Source: a virus
Taxonomy: Duplodnaviria; Heunggongvirae; Uroviricota; Caudoviricetes
Virus record (IMG/VR): IMGVR_UViG_2526164613_000026
Strand: one strand, 5' to 3'
Length of the DNA stretch: 38,095 nt
Part shown: positions 3,600 through 34,637 of the stretch, piece after piece
Numbering within the stretch: the first letter of the stretch is position 1
Layout: each line of letters begins with the position of its first letter
Made by a program: the position numbers and the translations under genes
The notes under the pieces: model-generated
What the model was told of the DNA's origin: nothing
Seen by the model: only the letters and a program-made list of their open reading frames with translations
The model's database searches: none

Positions 3600-3613
3600 T
3601 TGATAAACTCCTG

Positions 3614-3640
3614 AAAACAAAAAACCCGCCAAGTGGCGGG
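3614..3640 (-). terminator. Intrinsic terminator ending the accessory cassette, 24 nt upstream of the V-like start
   Basis: Minus-strand RNA CCCGCC-ACUU-GGCGGG (perfect 6-bp stem) followed by UUUUUUGUUUU. Confidence 0.7.
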
Positions 3641-3661
3641 TCTACAGGAACAACTCTAAGT

Positions 3662-3832
3662 TTATTTTTTCTGTTTAAAATTGTCCAACTCAGGTTCTTT
3701 AACGCTTTCTGTCATGTAATCCAATCCACCAAAAGGTACTTCAAGCATTATACTGCTTTCATAATCAGCCATGGATTGCTCTGCTTGCGTTGGCTTGCTT
3801 TGCTGTGAGTTGTCATTATTTGATGTTGTCAT
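3662..3832 (-). CDS. Small hydrophilic protein, 56 aa (third gene of tail-module cassette)
   Basis: Hand-translated (MTTSNNDNSQQSKPTQAEQSMADYESSIMLEVPFGGLDYMTESVKEPELDNFKQKK). Below ORF-track size cutoff. ATG 6 nt after upstream stop, AAGG 9 nt upstream. Confidence 0.35.
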   Translation of the reverse strand: MTTSNNDNSQQSKPTQAEQSMADYESSIMLEVPFGGLDYMTESVKEPELDNFKQKK

Positions 3833-3835
3833 CAA

Positions 3836-4390
3836 CTATGCCTTATTTATCAAAAGAAAAGTAACCGATAATATGAAAAAACCGAAAGATAACGCAATTC
3901 CTTCAAAAAGATAACGAGCGTAAACTGCCTTTTCTTTATGAAGACTTTCGATCAATTCAACAGCTTTACCATACTGAAACATATGGTATCTAAGCGTTTT
4001 AATTTTATCACCGTAAAATAAAAAATCATGCTCTTCTTTTCGCTTATGAATAGGCATTTTTGGTATATCTTTCAGTCCCCAAGTACGCCATAGGAAAAAA
4101 AAGCACATAACAATACAAACAAAGCACAGATATGCACAAAGTATAGATAATGTTAAAAACCAATTACTCTTTAGCCCACTTTTGAAATCAACAGTCCCAA
4201 ATACAGCCAGTAGAGCAGAGGTTTCTACAGCTAAAATAGCAAGAAGGTAGTTAACTTTGTCCTCAAGACGACGATATGTTGATTTTGCTTCCTCATATCT
4301 ATCTTTATAATATGACGAAATAAAATCAGCGCCTATAGTCTCAATTGCCTTTTGTTCTTCTGTTGTATCTATTGACGAACGCTTGCTCAT
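3836..4390 (-). CDS. Accessory inner-membrane protein, 184 aa, three predicted TM helices, unknown function
   Basis: ATG verified at 4390, 7 nt after the secreted-protein stop. AT-rich by eye. Hydrophobic stretches LLAILAVETSALLAVFGTV, WFLTLSILCAYLCFVCIVMCFFFLW, ALSFGFFILSVTFLLI. Sits between baseplate genes. Confidence 0.6.
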   Translation of the reverse strand: MSKRSSIDTTEEQKAIETIGADFISSYYKDRYEEAKSTYRRLEDKVNYLLAILAVETSALLAVFGTVDFKSGLKSNWFLTLSILCAYLCFVCIVMCFFFLWRTWGLKDIPKMPIHKRKEEHDFLFYGDKIKTLRYHMFQYGKAVELIESLHKEKAVYARYLFEGIALSFGFFILSVTFLLINKA

Positions 4391-4397
4391 TTCTCAA

Positions 4398-4745
4398 TCA
4401 ACCAACAACTTTCTTACACGGGAAAGAGCCAATAATTTTCGGAGCATCCATGCTGTTCTGCAACAACTGGACGTTCAGGAAACGCGTTTTAGTGCCAGGT
4501 CGATGGATATACTCGAACCCATAATTGTTGCCATCTTTGGCAGGCATCAGGTCCATTTTGATCTGCATGCCTGTACCGTCTTTACCCAACATTTTTACTT
4601 TTTGGGACGTTACTGTTTCGCCATTGATTTTAAATAATGAATCAGGGATCGCATCCATACGAAAGTTGCCGCATTGCATCGTTATGGTGTTTGCACTTAC
4701 ACCAACAGACACTAATGCCAGCAATGAAAATATCCATCGTTTCAT
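4398..4745 (-). CDS. Accessory secreted/periplasmic protein, 115 aa precursor, unknown function
   Basis: ORF-track N-terminal extension overlaps the hub gene. Internal ATG at 4745 has GAGAGGA upstream and gives MKRWIFSLLALVSVGVSA followed by NT (signal peptide with AxA-like cleavage site, no lipobox Cys). Two Cys in mature part. Confidence 0.6.
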   Translation of the reverse strand: MKRWIFSLLALVSVGVSANTITMQCGNFRMDAIPDSLFKINGETVTSQKVKMLGKDGTGMQIKMDLMPAKDGNNYGFEYIHRPGTKTRFLNVQLLQNSMDAPKIIGSFPCKKVVG

Positions 4746-4747
4746 TT

Positions 4748-5812
4748 CTATAATCCTCTCTGAAAAGCAGTGCTGGATGGGATATCCTGCGCACCGCGCG
4801 CTTCGCACATCATATCCATGTACCACGCCTGGCCCCTTGTGTCGCCAGTGTACATAATCCCGCGCACAATATAAACGCCATCCGTTGCGATGCTGGCAGG
4901 CTGCGATGTGGTGCCGCTTAGCGTGATATTTCCATCCGTGTTCTGGTCGGTGATCTGACCACCAGCCATCGCGATATCGTTGTTCGACAACGCGGTACGA
5001 TACACTGAAGCCTGATCCAGTTGAATGAGCCCGTTAACCCGGATGTTCGGATTAATAAGCGCGCGGACATTTACGCCGTTGCCGATGGTCTGCTGCGGCA
5101 TGCCAATAAGCCCGGTAGCGCTGTTGAGCACAATCGCTTTGTGAACATATTCATTATTCTCCACCATCTGGCGTTGACCGTCCACGAATTGCCATGTTGC
5201 GCCACATTGACCGGCTACGTTATCCATAAGATGCCGCGTCATGCCAAAGAGTACCCGCCCCCGGGGGAATACAGTAGCAGGCATTTCAGGCGTCAGGCCT
5301 TCGGTCGCGCCTTTGGCTTCGAAGTCTTTCATCAGCGCACGGTTCACATCAGCGACCGTGTAACCGGCAGCCAGCGTCTGTGAGGTTATACTGGTGGCAA
5401 AAGCCAGATCAGTATCTGCTGCCTGAATCAGGACGTAGGAATCAACCGGACTGTCTTTTCCTGTGACCGAGTAGCGAATTTCACCGCTGAAAATCAGTCC
5501 GTAGTTGCGACCATCACTCTGGCCCACGTCCGCCGCGTCAACTTCCCGCACTGTCCCGACGTCGCTTGCCGACACCTCCGGCGCGATACCGTCGTAACCC
5601 GCAATCAGACGCACTTTCGAAAACTCCTGCCCGGTAATTCGGTTCACAGTATCTGCCGAAAGGTTATAAATTTTGATAGTCCCTACCCGGGACGCGCTGC
5701 TGATGTTGAACCAGTCGATCGTAAAGGTGACTTTGAAATCACTTAGCTCAATTCCCTGACCGTTCCCGTCCACAAGCTGCAGCTCGAAATGTCTCATCCA
5801 GTTCTGTGACAT
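4748..5812 (-). CDS. Baseplate hub-like tail protein (position of Mu gp44 / P2 gpD)
   Basis: 354 aa, ATG verified at 5812. Assignment by size and synteny, downstream of the tape measure and upstream of the V-like spike. Confidence 0.55.
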   Translation of the reverse strand: MSQNWMRHFELQLVDGNGQGIELSDFKVTFTIDWFNISSASRVGTIKIYNLSADTVNRITGQEFSKVRLIAGYDGIAPEVSASDVGTVREVDAADVGQSDGRNYGLIFSGEIRYSVTGKDSPVDSYVLIQAADTDLAFATSITSQTLAAGYTVADVNRALMKDFEAKGATEGLTPEMPATVFPRGRVLFGMTRHLMDNVAGQCGATWQFVDGQRQMVENNEYVHKAIVLNSATGLIGMPQQTIGNGVNVRALINPNIRVNGLIQLDQASVYRTALSNNDIAMAGGQITDQNTDGNITLSGTTSQPASIATDGVYIVRGIMYTGDTRGQAWYMDMMCEARGAQDIPSSTAFQRGL

Positions 5813-21059: not shown

Positions 21060-21062
21060 GAA

Positions 21063-21404
21063 TTACTCCTTAGAGCCACCAAACTTGTTACCGATTACTC
21101 GCATTGCAGCCCCACGAATAGCATCGACACCGATCAGCCCAACACCACCACCAATGGCAACAGAAAGAGATTTAGGCCATCCAACATACTCAAGAGCGGA
21201 TGCAAAGGTCAGCGTCAGAGCACCACAGAGCAAAATCTCAAGCGTTTTTCGTTTCCAGCCGCCGCCACCGCCAAAATAGGCAATGCGCAAGCCAGCCATA
21301 ACAATTGACATAACCACTGCGCCCAACGGCGTATCTCCACGCCACCAACTTTGTAAGAGTTCCAGTAAGTCAGGCCAGGAATGAGGAGCATTGTGCATTT
21401 TCAT
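21063..21404 (-). CDS. Holin, class I-like with dual-start motif
   Basis: ORF track starts at ATG 21422 (119 aa). GGAGGTG sits before the ATG at 21404 (MKMHNAPHSW, 113 aa), with a further ATG at 21398. Three hydrophobic segments. Immediately upstream of R. Confidence 0.75.
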   Translation of the reverse strand: MKMHNAPHSWPDLLELLQSWWRGDTPLGAVVMSIVMAGLRIAYFGGGGGWKRKTLEILLCGALTLTFASALEYVGWPKSLSVAIGGGVGLIGVDAIRGAAMRVIGNKFGGSKE

Positions 21405-29079: not shown

Positions 29080-29628
29080 ATGAAACTGAAGCTGAACAAT
29101 GTTCGTCTGGCCTTCCCGTCTCTGTTTGAAGCTAAAACTGTAAACGGCGAAGGCGATCCACGTTTCTCCGCAGTATTTTTAATGTCACCCAAACACCCAC
29201 AACTGGAAGAAATCCGTAAAGCTATGAAGCAGGTAGCGAAGGAAAAATGGGGAGAGAAGTGGGAGCCCATTTATAACCAGCTGGAGAAAAAACTCAATCT
29301 GTGCCTGCATGATGGTGATGAAAAAGCAGAGTATGAAGGCTTTCCCAGTAATTTCTTCCTGAATGCTGCTAACAAAGCGCGCCCAGCTGTTCTTGATCGC
29401 GATCGTTCGCCACTTATTCAGGCTGACGGACGTCCCTATGCAGGGTGCTATGTAAACGCCGTTATCGATATCTGGGCACAGGACAATAATTTCGGTAAAC
29501 GCATTAATGCCTCACTCGGCGGAGTCCAGTTCCTGCGAGACGGCGATGCATTCGCTGGCGGCGGAGTGGCAAGCGCTGACGATTTCGACGATATCAGCGA
29601 AGGTGCTGATGCTGAAGCACTAATTTAA
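29080..29628 (+). CDS. DUF2815-type protein (SSB-like, replication module)
   Basis: 182 aa, ATG with AAGGAA upstream. N-terminal MKLKLNNVRLAFPSLFE pattern. Conserved partner of the DUF2800 nuclease and PolA. Confidence 0.65.
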   Translation: MKLKLNNVRLAFPSLFEAKTVNGEGDPRFSAVFLMSPKHPQLEEIRKAMKQVAKEKWGEKWEPIYNQLEKKLNLCLHDGDEKAEYEGFPSNFFLNAANKARPAVLDRDRSPLIQADGRPYAGCYVNAVIDIWAQDNNFGKRINASLGGVQFLRDGDAFAGGGVASADDFDDISEGADAEALI

Positions 29629-29643
29629 CCCTACTTCATAGAC

Positions 29644-29662
29644 GCCCGGTTAAACACCGGGC
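29644..29662. terminator. Perfect hairpin between convergent genes (possible bidirectional terminator)
   Basis: GCCCGGT-TAAAC-ACCGGGC, 7-bp stem, no strong U-tract on either strand. Confidence 0.4.
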
Positions 29663-29680
29663 TACTGATTAGGCGTATAA

Positions 29681-30061
29681 TCACTCAGGAATCTTAATCT
29701 TTCTCAATTCTTTATTTAGTTCACAGATCTTTTTCTTAGACGGGAAAGTATCATACATCCAAAAACCAACAGTCTCTAAAACTATTATCATAACCATATA
29801 CACAAGATAATTTAAAAGGCCTTCATTTTGCCCTATGGAAATAATGCAGATAATAGAAAAAAGGGTAAACAGCACAAAACACAGAAAGGAAAACAGACGA
29901 CTAATAATAAATAAAAAACCTGAAAAATCAACATTAATAAAAAACACTCCGTTATCTTTCTCTATATAATTCTGAAGCTTAATCAACTGATTTATATACT
30001 GTCTTTTTTCTAATCTATTGCAAATGTAAATAACATCTCTTCGGTTATAAGAGGATTGCAA
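29681..30061 (-). CDS. Accessory membrane protein ORF, 126 aa from TTG (or C-terminal part of a longer gene interrupted by TAG)
   Basis: AT-rich, antisense to replication module. Two long hydrophobic segments. Starts at TTG without a Shine-Dalgarno. In frame with the ORF upstream across a single TAG. Confidence 0.45.
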   Translation of the reverse strand: MQSSYNRRDVIYICNRLEKRQYINQLIKLQNYIEKDNGVFFINVDFSGFLFIISRLFSFLCFVLFTLFSIICIISIGQNEGLLNYLVYMVMIIVLETVGFWMYDTFPSKKKICELNKELRKIKIPE

Positions 30062-30121
30062 TTTCAGCGCATCACGAATAATTTTATCATTTATTCTTTT
30101 TTCTATGGCTTTCTTATCCTC

Positions 30122-30310
30122 CTAATCCAGATAACGTTCATACTTAATTAAATATAAAATTAACTTCTTGACATATTTAGGCTCTTTATACTTATAATTA
30201 AAAATGATCTTTCTTATCCAGACTCCCATAACAATCAAACATGAAAAAATATATCCAGCTATTTTCTCCAGATGCTCTGTATGGTCAATCAAGTATTGGA
30301 TCATATGCAT
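30122..30310 (-). CDS. Small accessory membrane protein, 62 aa (or N-terminal part of interrupted gene)
   Basis: ATG at 30310, one hydrophobic segment (IAGYIFSCLIVMGVWI). Stop TAG at 30122..30124, followed in frame by 20 sense codons and then the 126-aa ORF. Confidence 0.4.
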   Translation of the reverse strand: MHMIQYLIDHTEHLEKIAGYIFSCLIVMGVWIRKIIFNYKYKEPKYVKKLILYLIKYERYLD

Positions 30311-30356
30311 AATTAATCTTTTAATCAGTTAATAGAATAAAAACCAAGGTAAACAC

Positions 30357-32420
30357 ATGTCCAATATACTATGGGGCGACCTGGAAACCTATTGCGAAAT
30401 CCCTATTACGAACGGTACCCATGCGTATGCCGAAGGCGTTGAAGTGATGCTTTTCGCATGGGCTATCAACGACGGGCCAGTAAACGTGTGGGATATCACT
30501 GCCGGTGGTGGTATTCCACACGGCTTATACGAAGCAATCGCAGCCCCTGAAACCCTGCTTTATTTCCATAACTCTCACTTCGACCGCACCGTTCTGCGTT
30601 ATGCAATGCCGCGACTGGCACCGCCAGTCGAACGTTGGCGCGACACGATGGTGCAGGCGCTGGCGCACGGTCTCCCGGGGTCTCTGGGGGAACTCTGCGA
30701 AATACTAGGCGTCCCGCAAGACAAAGCGAAGAACAAAGAAGGTAAAGCGCTGATCCAGCTGTTCTGTAAGCCACGCCCGAAAAACAGCAAACTGCGCCGT
30801 GCCACCAGCAAAACCCACCCGGAAGAATGGCGGCGCTTTGTTGCTTACGCCGGACTGGATATCGAGGCAATGCGCGAAGTCTATAAACGTCTGCCGAAGT
30901 GGAATTATCAGGGGACAGAGCTGGCGCTCTGGCATCGTGATCAGCAGATCAACGACCGGGGCGTCTGCATGGACATGCAACTCGCGCGCGCTGCGATCGA
31001 AGCGGTAGACCAGGAGCAAAAGCGCCTAGCAAAGCGTACACAGGAAATGACTGATGGCGAAGTGCAGGCAGCCACACAACGAGACGCGTTGATTAAGCAC
31101 ATTGTTGAATCCTACGGTGTGGAGCTACCAGACATGCAACGCAGTACTCTGGAACGTCGTATTGCCGACCCCCATTTACCATCTGCCGTGAAAGAACTGC
31201 TGGCTATCCGCCTGCAAGCCAGTACTACCAGCACCAGTAAATACAAGGCACTGATGAAAGGCGTAAGCCACGACGGGCGCTTACGCGGTACGCTACAGTT
31301 CTGCGGGGCGTCACGTACCGGTCGTTGGGCCGGACGGCTATTCCAGCCCCAGAACCTTCCCCGCCCTTCACTAAAACAGGAACAAATAGACGAAGGCATC
31401 GAAGCACTGAAAGCCGGATGTGCAGACCTGCTGTTTGACAATATCATGGAACTAACCAGTTCAGCGTTACGTGGCTGCATTATCGCGCCAACAGGCAAAA
31501 AACTGGTGGTAAGTGACTTGTCGAATATTGAAGGCCGTATGCTGGCATGGCTGGCGGGAGAAGAATGGAAACTGAATGCATTCAGAGAGTACGACGCCGG
31601 AACGGGTCCAGACTTATATAAACTGGCGTATGCAAAAGCTTTCGATATTGCACCAGATGATGTTGATAAACACATGCGTCAGATCGGTAAAGTCATGGAA
31701 CTCGGTCTGGGTTATGGAGGTGGTGTATCGGCTTTCATCACTTTTGCTCTGGTTTACGGTCTAGATCTCGACGAGCTGGCGAACGCCGCACTGCCAAACA
31801 TTCCCCGCGATGTTATCCGCGAGGCGAAAAGCTGGTACAACGAATCGGTTAAACATAAGTCGACCTTTGGCCTGTCCGAGCGTGTATTCATCGCATGTGA
31901 CTCGCTCAAGCGCCTGTGGCGCAGGGCGCACCCGGCGACCTGCGATTTCTGGTACGAGCTGGAGCGCACTGTCCGCACAGCAATCGCCACACCGCAAAAA
32001 ACATTGTATTGCGGCTATCTTAAAATCCGACGTGATGGCGCGTGGCTGCGCATACAGCTGCCATCTGGACGCGCTGTATGCTACCCGTCTCCGATTATCG
32101 AAAAAGGGAATATCACCTATATGGGTGTTAACTCTTATTCGCGTAAATGGCAACGACTCAAAACCTACGGCGGAAAGCTGGTAGAGAACGTCACCCAGGC
32201 GGCCGCCCGCGACGTTCTGGCCGGAAACATGCCGCTTATCGAAGATGCCGGTTACAGCATTGTGCTGACGGTACACGACGAGGTGATCACCGAAGCACCT
32301 AACACAGAAGATTTCAACGATAAAGCGCTTTCCGCGCTTCTCTCCACTAACCCCGAATGGGCGCCCGATATCCCACTGAACGCTGGCGGTTTTGAAGCGT
32401 ACCACTACCGTAAGGACTGA
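30357..32420 (+). CDS. DNA polymerase I family (family A) with N-terminal 3'-5' exonuclease-like domain
   Basis: 687 aa, ATG with AAGG upstream. Polymerase motifs seen directly: [15 protein letters not shown] (motif A-like), [16 protein letters not shown] (motif B-like), LTVHDEVI (motif C). Confidence 0.9.
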
Positions 32421-32505: not shown

Positions 32506-33015
32506 ATGGAAAATACAGATGTCTGGCTATCAAGGATAGGTACTTTTGTTACCATAATTGGTGCTATGTGTTCACTATGGGGGTGGAAAAAGTCGCGGGA
32601 TGCCGCCACAGAAGCTCAAAAGGCTTTAGCTACGGTCAATTATCAACGTAGTATAAGGGACGCAGGCAACCTTCATGGAAAGTTATCAACCGCCATAAAA
32701 TCTCTAAGAGCAATTGGTCCTGGTTCGAATGAGGAAAATGTTCGAGGCATAAGTTTAGAACCAATAATTTCGGAAATAGAGGATTTCATCGATTTATTTG
32801 CAGCCCAAGCAATAAAACCTAACAATAAAGTAAAATTGAGCATAGACTCAGAAAATTTTTGTGCTGAAATAAGGGAAAATATTTCTGAACTTTCAGATGC
32901 AAAAACTCCTGCGGAAAAGTTAAGAACAGGTAGAGTTTTGCATGCAAAAATATTGGCTATTCAACCTCACATAGATCTACTCGTTGATGATTTAACGTTT
33001 AACACTCAAGGATAA
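32506..33015 (+). CDS. Accessory membrane-anchored protein, 169 aa, unknown function
   Basis: AT-rich. N-terminal hydrophobic anchor (IGTFVTIIGAMCSLWGW). Upstream inverted repeat GATACAT-N17-ATGTATC at 32438..32468. Confidence 0.5.
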   Translation: MENTDVWLSRIGTFVTIIGAMCSLWGWKKSRDAATEAQKALATVNYQRSIRDAGNLHGKLSTAIKSLRAIGPGSNEENVRGISLEPIISEIEDFIDLFAAQAIKPNNKVKLSIDSENFCAEIRENISELSDAKTPAEKLRTGRVLHAKILAIQPHIDLLVDDLTFNTQG

Positions 33016-33020
33016 AAAAC

Positions 33021-33571
33021 ATGCAACTTTCAGATGGCGAAAAACTAATTCTAATGATGCTGTGTGACCTGTACGATAAAAACGAGATTGAAGGCGAAAT
33101 CGATCACACATTTGTCCGTGATGCTATATTCGAAAACCAAACATGGGCACTCCCTTGGAAATTTAGTGGTATTCCATTTAAAAACACCGAAACTCCACGT
33201 GTTGTAAAAAAAGTTCTAGACATCCTAGATATGTGGAGAGTTATTGAATATAGCTACAGTGAACTTACAGAAGAAGAAAAAAGAAGTTAAAAGAAAATGT
33301 TGAGTTATTTGGAAAAAAACCAATATTCAAAGGATTCGATGGAAATAACGAAACTGAGTATCTTGCAGCCGCTGATTTCGTCATCAATAAACTGGATAGA
33401 TTTGAAGAATTCAAATTAAGAGATCTTAATTCTCACATGCCTTCGCTGGCATCATACGAACGCATGATGCATGTATTCAATCCATTATTTCATGAGAATT
33501 TTGGCGAGCCATTGACACTAGAACAACTAACCTTAGTTCTCCGTGAAAAAATTCATCCCAGCCGTCGCTAA
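33021..33571 (+). pseudogene. YfbU-family (UPF0304) protein gene interrupted by a 1-nt frameshift in an A6 run
   Basis: Frame 0 (89 aa, ATG 33021, AGGA upstream) stops at TAA 33288..33290. The -1 frame is open from 33263 to TAA 33569..33571 with no start before codon 47 of the continuation. Both halves align with E. coli YfbU as recalled. Adding one A to the run at 33277..33282 would give a single ~183-aa ORF. Confidence 0.5.
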
Positions 33572-33580
33572 AGATTCCCA

Positions 33581-33888: not shown

Positions 33889-34599
33889 TCATTCTGAGCG
33901 ACTTTTCTTGAGCTTAGAAGCTTTTAAAAAACATACTTTTAGTTGTTGTGTTTCTTTTATGCTTACAGGAATTAATTTCCCCTCAATTCCTTCGACACTC
34001 ATAAATTCAGAGCTATTTTTTTTACAGTTCCCCAAGACAAATTTTCCGTTATAGCTTTCGATAATATAAGCATTATATTTTTTAGAATAAAAAAGGGGCT
34101 CATCTGATAAGTATGCCCATGCCCACCCAAGGACTGAAGGAAGCATTGCTATGGATATAAAAAGCATAACCCCATGAGTTTTGTTTTTTATTCTAAATTC
34201 ATTCCTAATAAAAACAGATACTGCCCTGACACTGATAGGGCTAATAAATCCCAATAGTATTGCTTGGGTAGCCACATCCCTTATGGATTTTTCATAAAGG
34301 TATGAGCTACCGCCATATAAATACATTGTCCAGTATGAAAGCAAAGAGGCCAAAATGAAGAAAAATAAATACACCCACCATGGAATATTCTTCTCTTCAG
34401 TATCAATATGCAGCAAAGCGACTAAGGTGCACAAAAGTCCTAATGCAATAACAGAAAATTTAACTATTTCCTCAATCCCAATAGAAATAAAACTTACAGG
34501 GAATCCATAAAATGAGCTGTACCCTTTGTAAAAAGAAAAAGCCATAAAATAAAGGGCGGCCAAGAGAACCGTTGTAATTGATAAATCTTTTACATTCAT
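33889..34599 (-). CDS. Accessory polytopic membrane protein, 236 aa, unknown function
   Basis: ORF track starts at GTG 34614; ATG at 34599 (MNVKDL). About five hydrophobic helices then a soluble Lys-rich C-terminal domain. AT-rich, antisense, convergent with VRR-NUC (5-nt gap) and divergent from the SNF2 gene (38-nt gap). Confidence 0.55.
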   Translation of the reverse strand: MNVKDLSITTVLLAALYFMAFSFYKGYSSFYGFPVSFISIGIEEIVKFSVIALGLLCTLVALLHIDTEEKNIPWWVYLFFFILASLLSYWTMYLYGGSSYLYEKSIRDVATQAILLGFISPISVRAVSVFIRNEFRIKNKTHGVMLFISIAMLPSVLGWAWAYLSDEPLFYSKKYNAYIIESYNGKFVLGNCKKNSSEFMSVEGIEGKLIPVSIKETQQLKVCFLKASKLKKSRSE

Positions 34600-34637
34600 G
34601 ATGTTCAAGAGCACCTTTCTAATCAGGGATTTTCTTC

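Follow-up and report, generated by a model that had tools for sequence, protein, structure and literature searches.

A strain-specific amber codon disrupts a prophage gene for a three-transmembrane protein, a candidate phage-exclusion factor, in Escherichia coli O55:H7 DEC5B

The virus record IMGVR_UViG_2526164613_000026 of IMG/VR, a 38,095-nucleotide stretch (the window), contains a prophage in which a single 209-codon gene has been knocked out by one Lys63-to-amber change. The disrupted gene lies between a DUF2815 gene and a DNA polymerase gene, on the strand opposite to both, and shows no recoding and no division into two genes. It has been broken by ordinary gene decay, and the locus is a strain-specific pseudogene of E. 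coli O55:H7 DEC5B. Intact copies encode proteins with three predicted transmembrane (TM) helices that belong to phrog_10579, an uncharacterized family. On balance, we lean towards reading the locus as a single accessory gene, killed by the amber codon, whose intact product is an inner-membrane anti-phage protein.

A nonsense mutation private to DEC5B

The original prediction, made from the letters alone, described an open reading frame (ORF) of 62 amino acids (aa) starting at ATG, a TAG codon, 20 sense codons and a 126-aa ORF starting at TTG, all in one frame, and the coordinates confirm every part of this layout, with the 20 codons reading GAG GAT AAG ... CTG AAA (Table 1). It left open whether the locus is one three-TM gene of about 209 aa inactivated by the amber codon, a gene expressed conditionally through it, or two small membrane proteins. 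Comparison with other genomes bears out the first of these. The window region is 100% identical to the DEC5B chromosome (NZ_CP038389.1, complete genome CP038389), where the Prokaryotic Genome Annotation Pipeline (PGAP) annotates nothing within the 728-bp gap that holds the disrupted gene. Closely related prophages have a single 630-bp coding sequence (CDS) in the same place, annotated as a 209-aa 'hypothetical protein', in O55:H7 CB9615, BCE049 and many other strains. The same 630-bp CDS is found in three induced phages, vB_EcoM-606R2, vB_EcoM-689R2 and vB_EcoM-611R5 (intact products WP_000551014.1 / WP_021517263.1 / URC08724.1, from CB9615, BCE049 and phage vB_EcoM-606R2). DEC5B and CB9615 differ at 1 base over 721 aligned bp, an A-to-T change that turns AAG (Lys63) into TAG; codon 63 is AAG in the closest allele and GAG (Glu) in other alleles. 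Of 5426 complete E. coli genomes, 67 carry the gene, in every case on the chromosome and at 97.8-100% identity, and its reading frame is continuous in 66 of the 67, DEC5B being the one left; one of the 67 carries an in-frame deletion of 31 codons. Alignment to homologous prophages, which the original prediction had named as a test, therefore yields a continuous ORF, and two-gene homologues are not seen.

The TAG is a real nonsense mutation private to the DEC5B strain lineage. A sequencing or assembly error, which could appeal to a single-base difference within an AT-rich region, is scarcely credible, since the same base is shared by CP038389, by an independent 2012 DEC5B draft (AIFR01000035.1, in which the 62-aa product is annotated as EHV29115.1) and by the Logan assembly of SRR26718087, the latter two showing no other difference. 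An exact match to a 61-nt probe centered on the TAG is found in DEC5B alone, 1 of the 34 genomes returned. Three contigs from a 60-aa look-up were considered as additional TAG carriers and rejected, as they end at codon 63 with the AAG allele. Codon 63 lies within a short direct repeat, GGATAAG-GA-GGATAAG (window 30105..30130, minus strand), and is polymorphic (AAG/GAG/TAG). Three unrelated public contigs (L022, L023 and L024) stop exactly at codon 63, probably where assembly graphs break at the polymorphism.

An amber codon with a function of its own, whether through suppression or read-through or by splitting the gene into a 62-aa and a restarted membrane protein, is highly improbable. Such a reading could draw on the AGGAGG directly behind the TAG and on a frame that stays open for 146 codons downstream. 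The AGGAGG, however, was not created by the mutation, because it is ancestral coding sequence, (Lys/Glu-)Glu-Asp, in intact alleles too, and the first canonical in-frame start past it is the TTG that lies 60 nt away, no ATG, GTG or TTG being nearer. No Shine-Dalgarno sequence precedes this TTG at 30061 (upstream sequence CGTGATGCGCTGAAA), as had been stated. The TAG occurs in DEC5B only, 1 of the 34 probe genomes and among 67 carriers, while some 40 distinct homologues are all continuous. The window yields no transfer RNA (tRNA) gene, and hence no suppressor tRNA, and an Rfam search of it finds no RNA element near the amber site. Conditional expression through the amber codon is rejected on these findings. 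So is the idea of two small membrane proteins, given homologues at 20-42% identity that are full length and conserved across the amber site. The TTG ORF is a mechanical ORF call rather than an independent gene, because it has no Shine-Dalgarno sequence and no homologue begins there. It corresponds to residues 84-209 of the intact protein, which comprise the second half of the cytoplasmic domain, a TM2-TM3 hairpin and a tail with the motif [FY]-P-x(8)-N.

The DEC5B allele is most likely null. Since the next in-frame start is the TTG, 60 nt away and with no Shine-Dalgarno sequence, only the 62-aa TM1 fragment is expected to be made efficiently. In this fragment, a short acidic N-terminus is followed by TM1 (about aa 16-37) and by the beginning of the basic cytoplasmic domain, of which about 25 residues remain; the fragment has no TM hairpin and, among the invariant residues of the family, only Y57. 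A product restarted from the TTG would be without TM1, the conserved motif around the amber site and a ribosome-binding site.

Other alleles are disrupted independently. The allele of enteropathogenic E. coli (EPEC) C342-62 carries a frameshift, and the F1022 allele (L031 301..837, minus strand; protein P0098) encodes 178 aa after an in-frame deletion of 31 codons, residues 73-103, flanked by two repeated GAAAAAAGA (E-K-R) stretches. The F1022 allele is found on eight contigs, F1022 and seven others. Repeated independent disruption by amber codon, frameshift and 31-codon deletion fits a dispensable accessory gene. Across eight E. coli alleles, 22 sites vary, 15 of them nonsynonymous (amber included) and 7 synonymous.

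A membrane-protein family of Enterobacterales

A word-indexed search with the protein retrieves an E. coli/Enterobacteriaceae cluster of 456 member sequences and two truncated variants, and nothing else. Exhaustive phmmer comparison with 1.84 billion representatives finds 11 proteins; seven of these, 209-218 aa long and 23-42% identical, are homologues that are co-linear over the full length. A profile search adds proteins of 199 and 204 aa from Citrobacter, Klebsiella, Enterobacter and Pluralibacter, and cluster look-ups add distant members in Rahnella, Rouxiella, Pantoea/Erwiniaceae and Xenorhabdus. All members are named 'hypothetical protein'; full-length members span 199-218 aa with identity down to about 20%, and the homologues found all belong to Enterobacterales. 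The 209-, 204- and 199-aa subtypes form one family, because a hidden Markov model (HMM) built from seven 209-aa-type sequences alone gives 60-74 bits to members of the 204-aa type and 31-62 bits to those of the 199-aa type.

Homologue alignments run unbroken across codon 63, and the architecture, TM1 followed by a soluble domain and a TM2-TM3 hairpin, is co-linear throughout. The amber site is part of K-Y-x-x-Y-L-[SD]-x-E-D-K-x-x-I, the cytoplasmic motif with the strongest conservation. Residues Y57, R90, Y95, F123, P190 and N199 are invariant in the family alignments.

The reconstructed protein matches phrog_10579 (PHROGs v4, unknown function) at E = 7e-107, with aa 28-209 aligned to profile positions 1-182 of 182, and the remote homologues P0004, P0007, P0010 and P0023 match it at E = 7e-65 to 4e-15. 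Because the profile of 182 positions starts at Met28, some phage annotations omit TM1; the homologue alignment shows that the N-terminal 27 residues, which include TM1, are conserved. Weak matches to DUF2207_C, the best of them with E = 0.003 and 17 bits where the cut-off is 33, were dismissed as noise, and searching PDB sequences with the family profile gave nothing meaningful (Poz1, E = 0.05). Holin families score at noise level only (phrog_2508, E = 0.37; phrog_217, E = 0.07), and the gene lies outside the lysis cassette. No literature on the gene, the family or its genomic slot was found, and the gene is absent from the DefensePredictor supplements. The phrog_10579 family is uncharacterized, and no description was found of it or of the junction between the DUF2815 and polymerase genes as a hotspot.

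Predicted topology

Hydropathy confirms the helices that had been proposed: the first piece has a single one (about aa 16-37), and the second contributes two, at about aa 130-158 and at 165-187. Together with charge counts across the family, it gives the following layout. The N-terminus is acidic, 10-16 aa long and nearly devoid of Lys and Arg; TM1 comes next, then a loop of 83-104 aa in which about 20 residues are Lys or Arg. Two TM helices follow, separated by a turn of 0-6 residues, and the protein ends in a basic tail, 17-28 aa in length. Under the positive-inside rule, the protein is predicted to be N-out/C-in: the N-terminus would face the periplasm, and the helical domain (about 95 aa) and the tail would both be cytoplasmic. 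The predicted cytoplasmic tail carries the invariant Pro190 and Asn199. An AlphaFold2 model from 33 sequences (mean predicted local distance difference test score 74, predicted template modeling score 0.50) places helices at 2-39, 46-56, 63-82, 87-99 and 103-111, a beta-hairpin at 116-125, and helices at 132-159, 165-188 and 192-203.

Exchangeable cargo slots beside the DNA polymerase gene

The prophage adjoins yfhL and is of myovirus type, with a baseplate / contractile-tail-type module. Its genes include those for an integrase, SNF2, VRR-NUC, the DNA polymerase, DUF2815, DUF2800, a LexA-family repressor, VapE, a Q antiterminator and a lysis cassette. The AT-rich, opposite-strand character of the segment is borne out: the GC content is 0.27-0.32 across 29600-30400, against 0.45-0.59 in the flanks, the gene itself stands at about 0.29, and the flanking genes occupy the other strand. 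The neighbors described as a gene resembling those for single-stranded-DNA-binding (SSB) proteins and a polymerase gene are a DUF2815 (PF10991) and a family-A DNA polymerase gene. The view that the gene is an acquired accessory gene is well supported by its low GC content, its opposite orientation and the variability of the slot.

Both flanks are present in 159 of the 5426 complete E. coli genomes, in 67 of which they enclose the 209-aa type; genomes with this prophage lineage include O55:H7, O103:H2, enterotoxigenic E. coli (ETEC) H10407 and IAI1. In 13 of the 159, the slot holds a 199-aa family member in the same orientation. This protein, WP_032314218.1, is about 17-20% identical to the 209-aa protein yet belongs to the same family by HMM, and the exchange between the two is a deep allelic replacement within one prophage lineage. 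Other cargo comprises Nmad5 with an 89-aa or a 229-aa ORF, neither of which has a Pfam or PADLOC match, as well as BRO-N, AntA/B or HNH genes. In E. coli 23CRST009, the slot is occupied by IS1 and a SIR2-family protein that matches the PADLOC candidate PDC-S25 at 1.8e-136 and, more weakly, ThsA.

Just after the polymerase gene is a second low-GC slot. In the window, it holds a YfbU-family gene and one for a 169-aa hypothetical protein whose N-terminus is hydrophobic, a pair that has no PADLOC match and could be a two-gene cargo. In sister prophages, it holds a 253-aa TIR protein (L003 6486..7247, L004 6486..7247, L008 11205..11966) that matches PADLOC PDC-S35 at 1.7e-109 and the Pfam entry CAP12-PCTIR_TIR. 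Because cargo varies on both sides, the polymerase gene sits between two exchangeable low-GC slots.

Beyond E. coli, the homologues of Klebsiella, Enterobacter and Citrobacter are the last gene of their prophages, after tail-fiber, invertase, (reverse transcriptase) and UmuDC genes, and adjoin the host gene yedK; one Enterobacter homologue stands at the end of a CP4-type island. At the Klebsiella prophage ends (L009-L011 2692..4176), the 204-aa homologue lies downstream of umuDC and a 494-aa reverse transcriptase (RVT_1), which may be a defense-type retroelement. Since sister prophages exist without the gene, and some induced phages carry it while others have different cargo, it is dispensable for the phage. 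The gene is thus dispensable, horizontally exchanged and prophage-borne, and it is conserved at full length across genera.

Around the gene, the sole promoter-like site upstream has 9/12 matches; it marks a position and is not evidence of function. Promoter and terminator scanning of the locus gave site counts no higher than expected from shuffled sequence. The hairpin beyond the 3' end lies in a 61-nt fold of -19.5 kcal/mol (z = -2.5) and is invariant in 4/4 aligned loci; it has no T-run on either strand and was not called in the terminator scan.

Two further regions of the window were noted. A third low-GC island (3601..4800, GC content 0.35-0.41) lies within the baseplate/tail module and includes two minus-strand ORFs that PGAP annotates as hypothetical proteins, at 3836..4390 (184 aa) and 4398..4826 (142 aa). 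Between VRR-NUC and SNF2, an ORF of about 236-241 aa (WP_001101053.1, hypothetical; 33890..34614, minus strand; GC content about 0.40) may be another moron.

Table 1. Coordinates of the disrupted gene, its surroundings and alternative slot cargo (positions are in the window unless a locus is named)
Feature	Location	Strand	Remarks
Whole disrupted gene	29681..30310	-	209 codons + TGA; phrog_10579 family, three-TM inner-membrane proteins (predicted)
N-terminal remnant ORF, 62 aa, ATG start	30310..30122	-	ends at TAG 30124..30122
Amber codon TAG	30124..30122	-	codon 63 of the gene
TTG ORF, 126 aa	30061..29681	-	TGA 29683..29681; same frame as the 62-aa ORF
DUF2815 (PF10991, Enc34-type ssDNA-binding) gene	29080..29628	+	left border of cargo slot
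Family-A DNA polymerase gene, 687 aa	30357..32420	+	right border of cargo slot
GC-rich 7-bp hairpin GCCCGGU/ACCGGGC	29644..29662	.	between convergent DUF2815 gene and membrane-protein gene
Divergent intergenic region, 46 bp, and first polymerase-gene bases	30311..30363	-	promoter-like site TGGACA-18-TATTCT
Lambda-family holin and endolysin	~21061..21402	-	spanin-position ORF also present in prophage
199-aa three-TM protein WP_032314218.1	L005 1156..1755	-	E. coli 2014C-3061 and 12 other complete genomes
Nmad5-associated ORFs beside polymerase gene	L006 1888..2157 (89 aa, two-TM); L007 1816..2505 (229 aa, soluble)	-	
IS1 and 494-aa SIR2-family protein in slot	L008 6898..8999		E. coli 23CRST009; equivalent to window 29629..30356
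Second low-GC cargo slot just after polymerase gene	32506..33572	+	GC ~0.37

Comparison with known exclusion and defense systems

The closest parallel by description is SieA of phage P22, an inner-membrane protein of 162/164 aa with three predicted TM helices, whose most conserved motif, FxRYPxEAxxFNK, lies in the cytoplasmic tail (PMC10883804). SieA blocks DNA delivery through the ejection-protein conduit, and SieA types that are about 25% identical occupy one locus (Leavitt et al., 2024, PMC10883804). Like SieA, the gene described here is a prophage moron transcribed against its neighbors and encodes a small, here predicted, inner-membrane protein, and highly divergent types share one genomic position. 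Hydropathy, Lys/Arg counts and AlphaFold2 secondary structure all predict the SieA-type three-TM topology: TM1 leads into a basic, helical loop in the cytoplasm, TM2 and TM3 form a hairpin whose periplasmic turn is very short, and the cytoplasmic tail is basic. In both proteins, the best-conserved residues are an aromatic-Pro pair followed by Asn, within FxRYPxEAxxFNK in SieA and [FY]-P-x(8)-N-x-E-L-x-K here. The full family tail reads [FY]-P-[SG]-x-K-x-I-x-x-L-N-x-E-L-x-K; its Pro-Asn spacing is two residues longer than that of SieA, and the E/A/F/K positions of SieA are not conserved. This tail motif is the only region that hhalign ever aligns between the family and SieA. The cytoplasmic loop is about twice as long as that of SieA (about 95 vs 50 aa), and the genomic setting differs, being beside the DNA polymerase gene of a myovirus-type prophage rather than between gene 16 (ejection protein) and gene 9 (tailspike) of P22-like podoviruses.

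Homology to P22 SieA, to the type B SieA of E. coli HS1 and to P22 SieB was tried and rejected by hhalign, PHROG profiles and a local HMM. The SieA profile phrog_7745 recovers its positive controls, P22 SieA at 2e-108 and HS1 type B SieA at 6.5e-21; with the family HMM, SieA scores about 0 bits. The protein is not filed as SieA because every test of homology to SieA failed.

Single small phage-encoded inner-membrane proteins that block genome entry by other phages are also known in T4 Imm, T4 Sp and HK97 gp15, the last of these a moron. The likeness to these proteins is one of general description; sizes and TM numbers differ, and PHROG and PADLOC scans give no match to any annotated exclusion family. 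The slot itself resembles the hotspots of P2-like phages and P4-like satellites, where mutually exclusive low-GC cargo, including defense genes, occupies a fixed backbone position (Rousset et al., 2022, PMC9122126). Defense-type cargo here consists of SIR2 (PDC-S25) between the DUF2815 and polymerase genes and TIR (PDC-S35) in the next slot. Unlike those hotspots, the present slots belong to another phage lineage and position, and their cargo is mixed, with antirepressors, BRO-N, Nmad5 and HNH genes.

Proposed function and alternatives

Expression of the intact protein from the prophage probably does not depend on the replication operon, which would presumably be repressed in the lysogen; that the protein is expressed in the lysogen is only assumed, because the promoter and terminator scan gave nothing convincing. 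The protein would probably act at the inner membrane against incoming phages. Most likely, it would disturb the channel through which phage DNA is delivered, or a factor of the host inner membrane on which that channel relies, and either would amount to superinfection exclusion in the manner of P22 SieA; membrane damage triggered by infection is a less likely mode. The earlier suggestion of an abortive-infection or exclusion protein is a reasonable guess from context and topology. Of the functions weighed, SieA-like exclusion at DNA entry appears the most likely, ahead of an abortive-infection effector and of an accessory role outside defense. The more specific proposal is tentative, and falls short of what we would call probable: that phrog_10579 is an unrecognized superinfection-exclusion (or abortive-infection) family of Enterobacterales prophages and islands, built on the SieA blueprint by convergence or undetectably remote kinship, whose divergent 209- and 199-aa alleles (about 20% identical) occupy an undescribed defense-cargo hotspot beside the polymerase gene.

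Several observations weigh against a SieA-like or other anti-phage function. The functional part is inferred, and the protein shows no homology to any characterized protein. phrog_7745 matches none of eight family members, scanned at E <= 10 in the case of the 209-aa protein and at E <= 1 in the other seven, and hhalign gives the family alignment a probability of 3% against SieA, 0.1% against the HS1 protein and 0.5% against the SieA alignment. Neither Pfam-A (in a copy that does not include the SieA family, PF26849) nor NCBIfam matches the 209-aa protein, 33 aligned homologues or the slot-mates; PADLOC-DB 2.0 has no match to the 209-aa protein at E <= 10, and none to the 199-aa slot-mate at E <= 0.01. 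Structure searches with the model returned generic helical hairpins only, and the scan of the locus found no convincing promoter or intrinsic terminator. A Pluralibacter copy stands alone between eut genes and a LysR gene with no recognizable mobile element, and the slot also carries non-defense cargo such as antirepressors and Nmad5. The 15 nonsynonymous sites among 22 fit either diversifying or relaxed selection and are too sparse to separate the two.

Some of these same observations would suit an accessory membrane protein unrelated to phage defense, such as one that modulates lysis timing or replication, a factor in membrane stress or colonization, or cargo with no measurable function. Such a role is unlikely, though it deserves to be taken seriously: no defense homology of any kind was found, Nmad5, BRO-N and AntA/B share the slot, one chromosomal copy lies outside any recognizable mobile element, and substitutions within E. 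coli follow a pattern close to neutral. A contribution to the phage's own cycle, however, sits poorly with a gene that is dispensable for the phage, being absent from sister prophages and replaced by other cargo in induced phages, and with a prophage in which a lambda-family holin, an endolysin and an ORF in the spanin position are already present; moreover, the swapping of alleles of about 20% identity at one slot is typical of conflict genes. We consider it quite improbable that the protein is instead an abortive-infection effector, held inert until a phage cue reaches the cytoplasmic domain, whereupon TM2-TM3 hairpins would oligomerize, depolarize the membrane and kill the cell before phage release, like effectors of the RexB or two-TM type. 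The tight two-helix hairpin joined to a conserved cytoplasmic domain, the slot and neighborhood shared with SIR2 and TIR candidate defense genes, and recurrent loss-of-function alleles that could reflect a cost of toxicity are all compatible with this mechanism, as are the sub-threshold resemblances to holin PHROGs noted above. Those resemblances, however, are at the noise level expected of any TM hairpin, the gene stands singly with no sensor partner, and no PADLOC effector model matches. A SieA-like block at DNA entry remains the function we would rank first.

Significance

Recognition of the locus as a strain-specific pseudogene corrects an annotation, since PGAP leaves it unannotated, and removes the suggestion of recoding. 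The locus also defines an uncharacterized membrane-protein family confined to Enterobacterales and points to exchangeable cargo slots at the junction of the DUF2815 and DNA polymerase genes and at the junction that follows the polymerase gene, with SIR2 and TIR candidate defense genes among their occupants. The family probably adds to the membrane proteins of prophages already known to serve in exclusion or defense. DEC5B provides a natural null allele beside the near-isogenic intact allele of CB9615, a pair that can be used for a comparison of phage exclusion. If phrog_10579 is indeed an exclusion family, DEC5B would be a natural knockout for that comparison.

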